4,597 nt of DNA from a virus (lineage: Duplodnaviria > Heunggongvirae > Uroviricota > Caudoviricetes). Where the stretch lies: the IMG/VR virus record IMGVR_UViG_2734482566_000007; one strand, given 5' to 3'. Below are positions 1 to 4,597 of the stretch, piece by piece (within the stretch, counting starts at the first letter, position 1; every line of letters begins with the position of its first letter). The position numbers were made by a program, and so were the translations under genes. The notes under the pieces are model-generated. The model ran no database searches, was not told the origin of the DNA, and worked only from the letters and a program-made list of their open reading frames with translations.

Positions 1-60
1 CTCTCGTCTGGGGAATATCTCCCCGGCAGCCTTCAGGGAAAAATATCATCAGATGGCTGC

Positions 61-414
61 TTAAAAAAAGAACAAATGGTAGTGTCCGCTATTGCCAGTA
101 CACCTCAATTGCTCTGCGGCTTCGCTCAGAGCTGGCGTATGTTCCCGGCCTACTGATTCACACAGGTAATCAACGAAACCGGACACCAGTTTTCGTTCGC
201 GAGGCGTGATCGCCCCACCGACCGGAGTCCAGTAATCGAAACCCAGTTGCAGGAGTTTGAAAAAACGCTTGTGGAATGCGTAGTTACACACACGCTTAAA
301 GTCTGCGTGTATCCACTCACCTATTTTGATTTGATGCAGAAAATCGCAACTCTCCGGCGTCGCCGGGAGAAGTAATCCGGAAGAGGTTTGTTTGACCAGT
401 TGTATATGTGCCAT
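61..414 (-). CDS. Hypothetical phage protein, 117 aa from the ATG at 414 (the ORF track extends it to a TTG at 456); possibly a NinB/YbcN-like (DUF1367-type) protein
   Basis: Open frame ending at TAA 61-63. The codon at 456-454 is TTG, not ATG. The first ATG (414-412) has a GGAGA Shine-Dalgarno 7 nt upstream (minus-strand ccGGAGAaagccgATG). Family assignment is a weak recollection based on the motif ...RVCNYAFHKRFFKLLQLGFDYW... and the position downstream of the replication genes. Confidence 0.55.
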   Translation of the reverse strand: MAHIQLVKQTSSGLLLPATPESCDFLHQIKIGEWIHADFKRVCNYAFHKRFFKLLQLGFDYWTPVGGAITPRERKLVSGFVDYLCESVGREHTPALSEAAEQLRCTGNSGHYHLFFF

Positions 415-452
415 CGGCTTTCTCCGGTGGCACGGTGTTACACAGCAGGAGT

Positions 453-740
453 TCAATCCTGCTCAAGATTGTAGATGAGTTTATTCTTCAGCAAAAGCAG
501 AAAACCAGCCTTAAAACCAATCTCTTTCAAAACCCGTAATGATGTGACAAATTCGTCCTCACGCAAAATAAAACCGTCCGTCAGAAGTCCATTACAAAAA
601 TAAAATAACACAGCACCGCTCTTCCTTTGTTGAGATTGCAAACATCTAATGCGGCAATGGCTGACAATCGCTCCATTCTCAACGCGCACAGCATAGAGGC
701 CATTTTCACTAAAAATTTCACGCAATTCTTCGATTTTCAT
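453..740 (-). CDS. Hypothetical small phage protein, 95 aa, no recognisable domain
   Basis: ATG at 740-738 preceded by GGAAGGA 8 nt upstream; stop TGA 455-453. Sits directly downstream of a sigma70-like promoter at 822-849. No motif I can assign. Confidence 0.6.
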   Translation of the reverse strand: MKIEELREIFSENGLYAVRVENGAIVSHCRIRCLQSQQRKSGAVLFYFCNGLLTDGFILREDEFVTSLRVLKEIGFKAGFLLLLKNKLIYNLEQD

Positions 741-821
741 CTTCAGAATCCTTCCAGATAAATAGCTCTCCCCTGTTCGGGGTCCATCCCTCTTCTCCCT
801 GCGCGCTACTTAAGTGAGTCG

Positions 822-849
822 ATTCTATCTGCGAAGGTGCGCGAATCAA
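822..849 (-). promoter_or_regulatory. Candidate sigma70 promoter for the 453..740 gene: TTGATT (-35, plus 844-849), 16-bp spacer, TAGAAT (-10, plus 822-827)
   Basis: Hexamers read on the minus strand directly downstream of the hok terminator and about 80 nt upstream of the ATG at 740. The same two hexamers recur upstream of hok. Confidence 0.4.
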
Positions 850-867
850 ATTCACCGGAAATAAACA

Positions 868-913
868 ACAAAAAACCCGCCGAAACGCTGAGAGATCACA
901 GCGATGGGCGGGT
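868..913 (-). terminator. Rho-independent terminator ending the hok transcript
   Basis: On the minus strand, stem ACCCGCC (913-907) pairs with GGCGGGT (881-875), with an inner CGCUG/CAGCG helix, followed by a U6 tract (plus A-run 870-875) and more U-rich sequence. Not a terminator in the plus orientation. Confidence 0.7.
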
Positions 914-953
914 TAAGTGCGGGTGCGTTGAGGATGCCTGACACATCAGAGGT

Positions 954-981
954 GGGCGGGGATGGGATCAGCTCCCCGCCC
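954..981 (-). other. Perfect 9-bp GC-rich stem-loop (GGGCGGGGA / TCCCCGCCC, 10-nt loop) in the hok 3' UTR
   Basis: Plus 954-962 is the exact reverse complement of 973-981. It lies 9 nt after the hok stop and has no U-tract, so it is a structural or stability element, not a terminator. It shares the CCCGCC/GGCGGG motif with the downstream terminator, which would allow alternative long-range pairing as described for hok mRNAs. Confidence 0.5.
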
Positions 982-989
982 GGTCACTC

Positions 990-1145
990 TTACTTCCTGG
1001 ATTCGTAGTCTACGAAGACAGCGACCTCCGTCTGGCCGGTTCGGATTCGTACCTCACAGAGGTCTTTCCTCGTTACCAGTGCCGTCACTATGACGGTTAA
1101 ACAGATGACGATCAGGGCGATTAACATCGCCTTTTGCTGCTTCAT
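990..1145 (-). CDS. hok: Hok/Gef family type I toxin, 51 aa (MKQQKAMLIALIVICLTVIVTALVTRKDLCEVRIRTGQTEVAVFVDYESRK); closest in my recollection to HokD/RelF
   Basis: ATG at 1145-1143 with AGGAG 9 nt upstream; stop TAA 992-990. Single transmembrane helix followed by the conserved RK.LCE.R....EVA..Y Hok signature. The 70-aa ORF in the track is an in-frame upstream extension and is unlikely to be the real start. Confidence 0.85.
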   Translation of the reverse strand: MKQQKAMLIALIVICLTVIVTALVTRKDLCEVRIRTGQTEVAVFVDYESRK

Positions 1146-1321
1146 AGCCTGCTTCTCCTTGCCTTTCGGCATGTAAGAGGCTAACCTACATGTGCAAAGC
1201 ATGAAATTGGCCTCAGATTAATGTTAAGCGTCTTGCCGGACGCGTAATGTTAACTGGGGCTTTTCTCTATCTGCCTTTTGGTGTTCATGCCTGAAGCAGA
1301 TAGCCTCAAGCACCCGCAGTC

Positions 1322-1351
1322 ATTCTACTTACCTCGCCAATATGAAATCAA
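1322..1351 (-). promoter_or_regulatory. Candidate sigma70 promoter for hok: TTGATT (-35, plus 1346-1351), 18-bp spacer, TAGAAT (-10, plus 1322-1327)
   Basis: Read on the minus strand between the queH stop (1373) and the hok start. Would give a leader of roughly 170 nt, comparable to known hok mRNAs. Confidence 0.45.
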
Positions 1352-1372
1352 TCAGAAAGGTGCCCCATAAAA

Positions 1373-2059
1373 TCACTCCTTCTCTTCTTTACCGTAGTGG
1401 AGTTGACCAATTTTGATAAGAGGGCGTCCCTGAGATTTGCGGTGTAGATTGGTATCGCGCAGAGAATACACACAGCCACAATATTCCTGCTGATAGAATT
1501 TTTCGCGCTTGCTGATTTCAATCATACGGGACGAGCCGCCCTGCTTGCGCCAGTTATAATCCCAGTACACCATGCCCGGATAATGCGCGACGGCTCGCCG
1601 CCCACAGTCGTTAACCTGCTGCATATTTTTCCAGCGTGAAATGCCCAGTGAACTGCTGATCACACTGAAACCATTTTCAGCGGCGTACAGCGCTGTCCGC
1701 TCAAAACGCATGTCAAAACACATGGTGCAACGGATCCCTCGTTCGGGCTCCCATTCCATTCCTTTGGCTCGTTCAAACCAGTTGTCTGTGTCGTAATCAG
1801 CATCAATAAACGGCACGCCGTGTTGTTCAGCAAAGCGAATATTCTCATCCTTACGAATTAAATACTCTTTCTGAGGATGAATGTTCGGGTTGTAGAAAAA
1901 GATGGTGTAGTCGATTCCCGAGGCCTGAAGCGCCTCCATCACCTCACCGGAACATGGAGCACAGCAAGAGTGCAGTAGTAGTTTGTTTGCCCCGTTTGGG
2001 AGCTCCAATTTGGGCCGTTTGAAATCAGCAACTGTCATAAATATGTTTATTGGGGTCAT
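1373..2059 (-). CDS. queH: Epoxyqueuosine reductase QueH (DUF208 family), 228 aa (221 aa if translation starts at Met8)
   Basis: N-terminal [12 protein letters not shown] cysteine motif and C-terminal EYCGCVYS motif are characteristic of DUF208/QueH. ATG at 2059-2057, stop TGA 1375-1373. No clear Shine-Dalgarno before either candidate start. Confidence 0.75.
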
Positions 2060-2179
2060 AAAAATATCAAAGAGTGTAGCATTAGAACGGGGCTATCGGA
2101 AACAGATGTGTGACTGCTCCCCGCCCTTTCGGGTGGTCTCCTGATGATTTGAGGGTGCAGAAATCCCTCCGGTTAAGGA

Positions 2180-2206
2180 TTAAATTTTTAACAGTGCTAA
2201 ATTTAA
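2180..2206 (-). promoter_or_regulatory. AT-rich dyad TTAAATTT-N11-AAATTTAA immediately downstream of the 2207..2620 stop; candidate operator or promoter element in the 147-bp intergenic region upstream of queH
   Basis: Plus 2180-2187 is the reverse complement of 2199-2206. It is AT-only, so a weak hairpin. Function is inferred only. Confidence 0.25.
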
Positions 2207-2620
2207 TTATTCAGTTCTGGATTTTGTCGCCCTGCGTATCCGCGCTTTCGCGTTACGCTCAATCTGTATCAGCTTTTCTATATTTCTCCGCCTTTCCTGT
2301 TCCTCCTGGCGCAATAGCCTTACATCATCTGCCAGTCTGGTTTCTCTTTTTGCCACAGAGAGCATCCAGTCAAACGGCTCCACAACCGCACCGCAGATTT
2401 TACAGCGGACCTGACGCTCTTTTTCGTCAACCCGTACAGAGGCGTGATGGCAATATGGTCTTTCCGATGGCTCATAAAGAAAATTAACCTGATTACGAGG
2501 GTCATCCTCTTTTACCGGAAATAAAACGATATTGCTTAACTCATCTTCTGGTTTTATTTCCATGCTCCTCTCCTTTGATGCGAATGCCAGCGGTAATTGA
2601 AGCCTGATAGCTAATTTCAT
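2207..2620 (-). CDS. Hypothetical Zn-ribbon-like protein with a basic coiled-coil C-terminus, 137 aa (118 aa if translation starts at the internal ATG at 2563)
   Basis: ATG 2620-2618 directly abuts the TGA (2623-2621) of the upstream gene, suggesting translational coupling; AGGAGG lies 11 nt upstream. The internal ATG at 2563 has a stronger SD (aaAGGAGAGGAGcATG). Putative metal ligands in ...PYCHHASVRVDEKERQVRCKICG...; C-terminus is Arg/Glu-rich. Confidence 0.6.
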   Translation of the reverse strand: MKLAIRLQLPLAFASKERSMEIKPEDELSNIVLFPVKEDDPRNQVNFLYEPSERPYCHHASVRVDEKERQVRCKICGAVVEPFDWMLSVAKRETRLADDVRLLRQEEQERRRNIEKLIQIERNAKARIRRATKSRTE

Positions 2621-3043
2621 TCACAGTATCGCCTCCTGAAAATTACCCTGATAGAAAGCCAGTACACGCTGCATAGCTTCGCTCTTCCGGCACTCGCGAC
2701 AGATTATATTCAGGCGCCTGTCGTAGCGGCGTATTTCTCCGTCAGGTAATGACCAGATAAGGTCCGGATCAACAACAACCGGTTTCCTCACCTTTACTCT
2801 CGAGAGTTTTTTGCGGGCGCTTTGCCAGTCCTTGCGAGCCTGTTCAGACGGGAATAAGCCGTAGCCAGAATTATATACATCACCACTTGCGACCAGTTCT
2901 ATGCATAAGCGACCGACAGACGCACGACTGATACCTGTTTCATCTGACAACTGCCGAATCGTGACCCGACCGTCCTGATGCACGAGTTCCACAATTCGCG
3001 TCTTCAGTTCTTCCCGCTGTTCGGGAGTAAAAGGTTTCGCCAT
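2621..3043 (-). CDS. Ren-like winged-HTH protein, 140 aa (resembles lambda Ren in the HTH and C-terminal ...RECRKSEAMQRVLAFY... segments, with an internal insertion of about 45 aa)
   Basis: ATG 3043-3041 with AGGAGG about 6 nt upstream; stop TGA 2623-2621. Lies immediately downstream of the DnaC-like gene, the same position as ren after P in lambda. HTH segment VTIRQLSDETGISRASVGRL. The Ren assignment is from a recalled sequence and needs a search to confirm. Confidence 0.65.
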   Translation of the reverse strand: MAKPFTPEQREELKTRIVELVHQDGRVTIRQLSDETGISRASVGRLCIELVASGDVYNSGYGLFPSEQARKDWQSARKKLSRVKVRKPVVVDPDLIWSLPDGEIRRYDRRLNIICRECRKSEAMQRVLAFYQGNFQEAIL

Positions 3044-3057
3044 AAATCCTCCTGAAA

Positions 3058-3819
3058 CTACTTAACAACCCTCGAATGGCTAACATTCGGACGCCAGCTC
3101 TCCCAGTTAAAATTCACCCAGCGCCCGCCGTTCATGACCATGCGATCCATCACCCGCTCGCCGAGCAATGTTTTCATCACCTCATAGTTCAGGTGATGAA
3201 AACATTGCTCGGCGAGCGGGTGATGGATCGCATGGTCATGAACGGCGGGCGCTGGGTGAATTTTAACNNNNNNNNNNNNNNNNNNNNNNNNNNNNNNNNN
3301 NNNNNNNNNNNNNNNNNNNNNNNNNNNNNNNNNNNNNNNNNNNNNNNNNNNNNNNNNNNNNNNNNNNNNNNNNNNNNNNNNNNNNNNNNNNNNNNNNNNN
3401 NNNNNNNNNNNNNNNNNNNNNNNNNNNNNNNNNNNNNNNNNNNNNNNNNNNNNNNNGATAGCTGCCGCTAAGTGATTCTTCCCGGTACCAGGTTTTCCGC
3501 TGAACGCAAAATTTGTACACCCGGTCATCAGTTCATCGGCGATGGATTTCGCCTGGCTTAACGCGTATCGCTGGCCGTCGTTCTGCACCTGGTAATTCGC
3601 AAACGAGCATTTACGGTGCAACGGCTGGATGCCTGAGCGATTCAGAATTTTTTCCACCCGCAACTGGCGATTCAGGCGGTTGATCTCCTCGCTACGTTTC
3701 TGGCCTTCAGCAAGTTGCCACTCGCGCCACTCCGCTACCGTTCTGAATGGGGCGGTTACATGTGGCGGGGTCAGTCGGCGGATGCGTTCCAGAACGCCGC
3801 CTGTCGCAATATTTTTCAT
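3058..3819 (-). CDS. DnaC-like replicative helicase loader (AAA+ ATPase), coding sequence interrupted by an assembly gap and a fold-back artifact
   Basis: ATG 3819-3817. N-terminal part closely resembles E. coli DnaC / prophage YdaV-type proteins, including Walker A FSGKPGTGKNHLAAAI; genuine C-terminus ...NYEVMKTLLGERVMDRMVMNGGRWVNFNWESWRPNV... Residues between are N-masked (3268-3456) or come from an inverted duplicate (3191-3267). Confidence 0.85.
   Translation of the reverse strand: MKNIATGGVLERIRRLTPPHVTAPFRTVAEWREWQLAEGQKRSEEINRLNRQLRVEKILNRSGIQPLHRKCSFANYQVQNDGQRYALSQAKSIADELMTGCTNFAFSGKPGTGKNHLAAAIXXXXXXXXXXXXXXXXXXXXXXXXXXXXXXXXXXXXXXXXXXXXXXXXXXXXXXXXXXXXXXXVKIHPAPAVHDHAIHHPLAEQCFHHLNYEVMKTLLGERVMDRMVMNGGRWVNFNWESWRPNVSHSRVVK
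3106..3267. repeat. Perfect 77-bp inverted duplication (arms 3106-3182 and 3191-3267, 8-bp spacer) ending exactly at the N gap; probable fold-back assembly artifact
   Basis: The reverse complement of 3191-3267 is identical to 3106-3182. The left arm encodes the conserved DnaC C-terminus; the right arm gives non-homologous residues (VKIHPAPAVHDHAIHHPLAEQCFHHL) where the AAA+ core should be. Confidence 0.8.
3268..3456. other. Assembly or scaffold gap, 189 N
   Basis: Run of N. Gap plus artifact arm totals 266 nt, close to the roughly 260 nt expected for the missing DnaC-like core, so the reading frame is fortuitously preserved. Confidence 0.95.
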
Positions 3820-4174
3820 GGTCCGTTACCCCCTGAAGCCTGGCGGGATCGCACTGTCCGGCAACGAGACGGTGTTAACCTGTCGGAGCAACGTCTCAGG
3901 CCGAACACCTTTCGGCGCGAACAGGCCCTGGTATTCATTGGCGATGCTGTGTCGAATCACCTGCTCAGGTGTAAAACCCTGCTGACGGAATTTTTCCAGT
4001 TCCCGTATCGCCCCGTTAGCGCCCTGCTCCGTTCGAATCGGTTTTCGCAATGCCTGTCTGAACCGGACCCACTCATGCCAGAGTGTTTCCGGCAACCAAT
4101 CGGGCAGCTCAATAGCCTCCGGCTCGAATTTTTTAGACGCTCGTTTTTGGCGAGGGGGAGATCAGTATTTAGAT

Positions 4175-4194
4175 CTTCCTCTTCCTCTTCCTCT
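4175..4194. repeat. (CTTCCT)3 hexamer tandem repeat encoding the poly-Glu linker of the replication initiator
   Basis: Plus 4175-4192 is three exact CTTCCT units plus CT, translating on the minus strand as (GAG GAA)3. Confidence 0.8.
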
Positions 4195-4217
4195 GGTAAC
4201 GCTTTTTGATCCGTTTG

Positions 4218-4238
4218 TGTAACGCTGGCAGCGTTACC
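4218..4238. repeat. Dyad element A: TGTAACGC-TGGCA-GCGTTACC inside the initiator gene
   Basis: 8-bp arms are exact reverse complements. Near-identical to element C at 4425-4445. Confidence 0.6.
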
Positions 4239-4263
4239 TTTTCGTTTCAGTTCGCGTATTTTT

Positions 4264-4283
4264 GTTACTCGCTCGTTTGTAAC
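4264..4283. repeat. Dyad element B: GTTAC-N10-GTAAC inside the initiator gene, flanked by T-rich tracts
   Basis: Same GTAAC/GTTAC core as elements A and C, in the opposite arm order. Confidence 0.45.
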
Positions 4284-4424
4284 CGCCCGTTTTTTAGAGC
4301 TTTTTCCGTTATGACGTTCAAAGTTAGGTAGAGAAAGCCCTCCGTCATTTTCGACCAGCCATCCAACCTGAATTAACGCATCAGCAAAACCAGACATAAA
4401 AGTGATGCGATCTATTGCACTTTT

Positions 4425-4445
4425 TGTAACGCCGCGAGCGTTACA
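4425..4445. repeat. Dyad element C: TGTAACGC-CGCGA-GCGTTACA inside the initiator gene
   Basis: 8-bp arms are exact reverse complements. Shares the TGTAACGC...GCGTTAC consensus with element A about 207 bp away. Confidence 0.6.
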
Positions 4446-4597
4446 ATCTGCATTACCGTCTATCATTTGTTGATCCGCCCATGCCCAGAAGCGAATAACC
4501 TGAGGTAGCCTGAGTTTAACGGACACTCCTTCCTGAAATAGAATGGCATCAGAAGGAGCTAATAATGAGCAGAAAAACCCAACGTTACTCTAAAGAG

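Follow-up and report, generated by a model that had tools for sequence, protein, structure and literature searches.

The perfect inverted repeat that interrupts the ydaV gene in the stretch of DNA analysed here (4,597 nt in all, referred to below as the window) is almost certainly an assembly artefact, formed at the end of a contig, probably from a snap-back chimeric template, and no feature of the organism's DNA. The window is a short-read scaffold of a prophage remnant of the Shigella sonnei / E. coli type. An earlier note, written from the letters alone, had likewise taken the repeat for an assembly artefact, and this reading is supported by the absence of the repeat from finished relatives, by an exact break point and by its position at a contig end.

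Comparison of the window with itself revealed two arms of 77 nt each (3106-3182 and 3191-3267) which are 100% complementary and are separated by a spacer of 8 nt, CATAGTTC, at 3183-3190. The junction reads ...CATAGTTCAGGTGATGAAAAC... The last base of the right arm, 3267, is followed directly by the first N (3268) of the sole N run in the window, which comprises 189 N. Recomputation thus bore out the earlier note, according to which the second stretch is the exact reverse complement of the first and stops where the Ns begin; the repeat and the gap do lie within a DnaC-like gene, namely ydaV on the minus strand. Because the right arm is cut by the N run and its partner positions are unreadable, 77 nt is a lower bound for the length of the arms. 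Perfect inverted pairs of this length are expected by chance about 4e-40 times in 4.4 kb of random sequence, and the repeat region folds as single-stranded DNA with -110 kcal/mol (z = -27 against shuffles), so the repeat did not arise by chance. For the true sequence of this site the fold had -18 kcal/mol (z = -0.5). In an Rfam scan of the window no RNA family was found at the repeat, the only hit being sok at 1140-1315.

The reference chromosomes were those of the closed E. coli genomes FDAARGOS_943 (L001) and FDAARGOS_944 (L002). Both were 99.8-99.9% identical to window positions 108-3194 and 98.4-99.0% identical to positions 3457-4501, and both carried the same segment of 247 nt between positions 3194 and 3457, which occupies 3212-3458 in L001. 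An ungapped alignment to the closed genomes was perfect from 3001 to 3194 and then showed 54 mismatches in 73 positions (3195-3267). Ten further finished chromosomes, one of them that of Shigella sonnei 53G (HE616528.1; L008), were gathered by looking up the DUF977 protein encoded next to ydaV. The true junction and an identical 247-nt segment were present in eight of them; the remaining two possessed a more divergent ydaV allele and were also without the fold-back. Five chromosomes (L006, L007, L008, L013 and L014) were, over the stretches covered, 100% identical to the window to the left and right of the gap and lacked the repeat, and L005, L010 and L012 were at least 99.6% identical to the window up to 3194. 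An uninterrupted ydaV of 747 nt was found in each of the ten finished chromosomes that match closely (the two E. coli references and the eight obtained via DUF977). In none of these ten did the fold-back occur; each has the 247-nt segment instead and rejoins the window at 3457. The comparison with closed genomes, which the earlier note had proposed as a check, therefore yielded an intact ydaV and no inverted repeat in all ten.

Searches with the repeat itself gave the same picture. In every genome compared, the sole BLAST match of window positions 3191-3267 was to the opposite strand, where the left arm lies. A junction probe of 134 nt with the turn at its centre found no place with at least 80% coverage in 5,426 complete E. 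coli genomes, a 36-nt junction pattern had no match in genome, viral or metagenome contig collections, and look-ups of the exact products of the two artefactual open reading frames returned no match.

The break point can be placed to the base. In the closed genomes the true sequence runs ...CATCACCT CATAGTTC AGGT TTGTCAGC..., while the window has ...CATCACCT CATAGTTC AGGT GATGAAAAC... The genome itself thus supplies the spacer and the opening 4 nt of the right arm (3183-3194), and what does not belong to the locus is confined to the 73 nt from 3195 to 3267. After AGGT the window continues with the reverse complement of the bases that precede ACCT. The switch of strands coincides with a natural ACCT/AGGT stem of 4 bp and its 8-nt loop; the true sequence contains this element too and is predicted to fold into a small stem-loop at this point. 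As read off the sequence, the loop lacks self-complementarity. The junction therefore needs either a physically chimeric template or an explicit mis-join by software; the strand symmetry of an assembly graph is unable to yield it. The coordinates of all features are collected in Table 1.

Table 1. Features of the window and their positions
Feature	Position	Strand	Remarks
ydaV, prophage DnaC-like AAA+ helicase-loader paralogue	3058..3819	-	762 nt in the window including artefact and Ns; real length 747 nt
ydaV, genuine 5' part (residues 1-121)	3457..3819	-	100% identical to L002 and to S. sonnei-type loci
Left arm	3106..3182	.	Genuine; codes for the YdaV C-terminal region; identical to closed genomes
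Micro-hairpin ACCT-CATAGTTC-AGGT	3179..3194	.	Genuine; window equals references through 3194
Spurious fold-back, reverse complement of 3106-3178	3195..3267	.	Appended to contig end; mismatches start at 3195
Scaffold gap, 189 N	3268..3456	.	Together with the 73 spurious bases replaces 247 real bases
ydaU-like replication gene, degraded	3826-4526	-	10-nt deletion (AGGGGGATTT) at ~4152 relative to an intact E. coli CDS of 260 aa
DUF977 gene		-	PF06163, 1e-33
QueH, epoxyqueuosine reductase	1373-2059	-	PF02677, 2e-65; same RefSeq annotation in closed genomes
hok/sok type I toxin-antitoxin module, complete	993-1315	-	hokD PF01848, 4e-23; sok RF01794, 117 bits

The favoured course of events starts from the left contig, which is correct up to 3194 and would then have taken in chimeric snap-back sequence. 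The 3' end of a fragment, ...AGGT (3191-3194), may have annealed to ACCT (3179-3182) on the same strand, and a polymerase extending the folded end would have copied its own strand backwards, probably during end repair or amplification in the preparation of the library. The contig stops 73 nt past the switch, where a scaffolder would have bridged it to the next contig with an estimated gap of 189 N. This model reproduces exactly the order observed, i.e. true sequence, 8-nt loop, AGGT and the reverse complement of the bases upstream of ACCT. We infer the snap-back chemistry and the acceptance of the chimera by the assembler; the exact break point, the presence of the micro-homology and the absence of the junction from finished relatives were observed directly. 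Fragmentation and end repair in library preparation are documented to give rise to chimeric reads in which a strand passes into its own reverse complement at a short natural inverted repeat (PMC10908179). A point against snap-back is that a stem of 4 bp makes a weak primer.

The same final sequence would result from software, if a gap filler or scaffolder had added a mis-oriented piece. In this purely computational explanation a scaffolder, gap filler or contig extender joined a read or mini-contig to the contig end in the wrong orientation, as the reverse complement of that end, before the Ns were inserted, and no chimeric molecules were involved. We consider it possible though rather unlikely. 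That the repeat stops exactly at the edge of the gap, where gap-closing tools write, is in its favour, and the gap size of 189, which is not a round number, suggests that a scaffolding step was run. However, the join lies precisely at an inverted micro-homology of 4 bp, which polymerase snap-back explains and for which a software mis-join has no need, and extension by overlaps or k-mers requires that the junction be present in the reads, since the 8-nt loop is not self-complementary. Because of the micro-homology at the switch, chimeric molecules are favoured over a gap-filling or scaffolding tool as the source of the fold-back. With a computational origin, too, the inverted repeat would still be no real feature.

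It might also be thought that the duplication is genuine. During replication of the isolate's DNA, a template switch at the ACCT/AGGT micro-hairpin could have led to the backward copying of 73 nt or more of the nascent strand, thereby inactivating ydaV in a decaying prophage. Such a switch in vivo would use the same micro-homology, and the loss of ydaV might have come without cost, the replication module being already degraded (its ydaU-like gene is frameshifted and cut by an IS element). Nevertheless we regard this origin as very improbable. The repeat is absent from all finished relatives, including loci that are 100% identical on both flanks over the covered stretches; its arms are perfect and the right arm halts at the contig end; and a near-perfect palindrome of 162 bp would be unstable in enterobacteria, where such a structure, with its 8-nt spacer, is prone to cleavage by SbcCD and to replication slippage. 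Taken together, the flank-identical relatives without the repeat, the coincidence with a contig end and the instability of palindromes make an inverted duplication in vivo unlikely. The chance is equally slight that the isolate carries a near-perfect ydaV palindrome of at least 162 bp made in vivo, at which the assembly broke because palindromes resist sequencing and assembly. Scarcely credible is the idea that the N run is a deliberate mask over real assembled sequence, with a longer palindrome, real or assembled, continuing beneath it. The visible arm is indeed cut by the Ns, so that its full length is hidden, and some sequence collections do mask stretches with Ns. Against this, ydaV resumes to the right of the Ns on the correct strand and only 15 nt off the true spacing, which leaves little room for a long hidden arm, and a DnaC-like core would seem to give no cause for masking. 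The inverted repeat is thus not a real feature, and its origin in a snap-back template remains the preferred explanation.

The wider layout of the scaffold also speaks for an artefact. Artefact and Ns together amount to 262 nt (73 + 189) in place of 247 real nucleotides, an excess of 15 nt, and therefore the flanking contigs are in the correct order and orientation and at nearly correct spacing, as expected for a gap estimated from paired ends. The ends of the window (1-107 and approximately 4500-4597) are the two termini of one IS3-family element of about 1.26 kb with HTH_Tnp_1 and rve genes (3110-4373 in L010). The complete chromosomes L006 and L007 have the same IS junction at approximately 4501. 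From its first residues, MSRKTQRYSKE, and its length, the element may be IS600. Scaffolds made from short reads typically break at repeats, and across thousands of assemblies the DUF977 gene is found mostly on contigs of 2-5 kb. The IS termini at both ends and this distribution of the DUF977 gene suggest that the window represents an entire scaffold built from short reads, with a copy of the IS at either end.

Other causes of the gap and the repeat were considered and set aside. A collapse of repeated sequence was not demonstrated as the cause of the gap, the 247-nt segment being single-copy in most E. coli genomes that possess it (median 1 place, maximum 4), among them the two closest E. coli. 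The arm length of 77 nt might be taken for a de Bruijn k-mer signature, as 77 is a common assembler k value. With k = 77 and the branch at 3194, however, a self-conjugate hairpin edge would stop at 3255 or 3225 and not at 3267. The length of the arm is fixed only by the point where the contig stops, and nothing about the assembler is deduced from it. A megablast search detected the arm in no more than 7 of the 5,426 complete E. coli genomes, which at first suggested that the turn might mark the edge of a mosaic or a site of recombination. This was ruled out, since the common allele differs only by scattered SNPs and there is no structural boundary; megablast misses the common allele because these SNPs, the last of them at 3178-3179, break its 28-nt seed.

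Some observations on the variation of this locus may be added. The 3' 120 nt of ydaV (window 3058-3180) showed about 15 scattered SNPs relative to the common E. coli allele, represented by L003 and L004. Over the 247-nt core the two alleles are identical, and further 5' there are few differences. The DUF977 gene was met in 6,560 blocks in the wider assembly collection, as against 7 of 5,426 complete E. coli genomes for the 3' end of this ydaV allele.

The genes of the window, all encoded on the minus strand, are those of a Rac-like lambdoid prophage remnant. Read from the right, their order is a ydaU-like gene, ydaV, the DUF977 gene, a gene for a small Zn-ribbon protein, queH, hokD with sok, and a gene of 95 aa; queH thus sits between the replication module and hok/sok. 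The sok antisense RNA is full-length, covering model positions 1-157 of 157 (RF01794). Decay of the replication module is evident in the ydaU-like gene, which the 10-nt deletion splits into the open reading frames 3826..4095 and 3957..4526 and which lacks its 5' end owing to the IS element at approximately 4501. S. sonnei 53G appears to share the deletion, as the alignment has no gap there. A (TCTTCC)n hexamer array at about 4173-4200 codes for a Glu-rich run; compared with this array, that of L006 has 12 nt more, that of L008 24 nt more and that of L001 6 nt less. The run of T at 4289 lacks 2-3 nt relative to L006 and L008. These differences in the array and the T run could be real copy-number variation or a collapse in the short-read assembly.

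The gene affected by the artefact is well defined. In both E. coli references the RefSeq annotation at this locus is a 248-aa 'ydaV ATP-binding protein'. Intact YdaV matched PF01695 (IstB_IS21) with 1e-19 and 71.4 bits (cut-off 24.1) and, at 510 bits, the NCBIfam model PRK12377 (cut-off 389), and it aligned to E. coli DnaC (PDB 6QEL) over residues 2-242 with E = 8e-75. With 306.1 bits it remained below the cut-off of 357 of the DnaC equivalog NF005931. Because it falls below this cut-off and above that of PRK12377, YdaV is assigned by sequence as a prophage paralogue of DnaC and not as DnaC itself.

What the window retains of this protein are residues 1-121, ending just past Walker A (GKPGTGKNHLAAAI), and residues 205-248. 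Walker A (GKPGTGKN, residues 108-115) is therefore kept, whereas residues 122-204 are lost with Walker B (LLVLDEIG), sensor I and a ...MLTN motif; Walker B is found only in the reference segment under the gap. The N-terminal fragment of the window reached 16 bits against IstB_IS21, under the cut-off of 24.1, and in the profile search neither the C-terminal fragment nor the fold-back peptide matched any family. The earlier note had assigned the left arm to the conserved DnaC-like C-terminus and described the residues of the right arm as unrelated to the AAA+ core. Both statements hold: residues ~208-233, VMKTLLGERVMDRMVMNGGRWVNFN, align with DnaC (6QEL), and the reading of the right arm on the gene strand, VKIHPAPAVHDHAIHHPLAEQCFHH, displaces the true core and has no family match. 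Likewise the drop from 71 bits for the intact protein to 16 bits for the fragment (cut-off 24.1) justifies the warning that any annotation of the helicase-loader core from this assembly is unreliable.

Two open reading frames had been put down to the artefact. For the minus-strand frame 3263..3520 this is correct: it owes its existence solely to the lack of stop codons in the Ns, and the true sequence has no counterpart. The plus-strand frame 3076..3471 is such a product only in part. Its first portion is an antisense frame that is open in intact genomes too (90 aa, 3093..3365 in L001), which the artefact and the N run merely lengthen to 131 aa. Since the excess of 15 nt is a multiple of three, an open reading frame of 253 aa runs through the Ns on the strand of ydaV.

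The importance of these results is one of data hygiene only, and they carry no biological consequence. The scaffold harbours 73 wrong bases, an in-frame run of X and two phantom open reading frames. From such a sequence gene callers will predict a "protein" of 253 aa, part of whose interior is false, and no annotation of the AAA+ core is possible. Artefacts of this kind can be screened for cheaply by looking for perfect inverted repeats that stop at a run of Ns and have a short micro-homology at the turn.

Among known systems, the true product of the locus is most like E. coli DnaC (6QEL/6QEM) and the Rac-prophage paralogue YdaV, with which it shares end-to-end homology, Walker A (GKPGTGKN) and Walker B (LLVLDEIG); DnaC proper differs, as the true YdaV scores 306 bits against the equivalog cut-off of 357 and 510 against the 389 of PRK12377. 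As for the repeat, long perfect inverted repeats within protein-coding genes are described in the mitochondrial genomes of Nematomorpha (PMC6649704). According to that account, the palindromes are embedded in the coding genes and both of their arms are protein-coding; the repeat in the window, in contrast, is restricted to a single scaffold edge, is found in none of the relatives and takes the place of essential AAA+ motifs. A closer likeness is found in the inverted chimeric reads of the PDSM model (PMC10908179), which also consist of an original strand joined to its own reverse complement, with the switch at a short natural inverted repeat. Those artefacts are described as low-frequency soft-clipped reads from human resequencing, whereas the fold-back described here is apparently fixed in the consensus of a contig end, and its stem is of only 4 bp.
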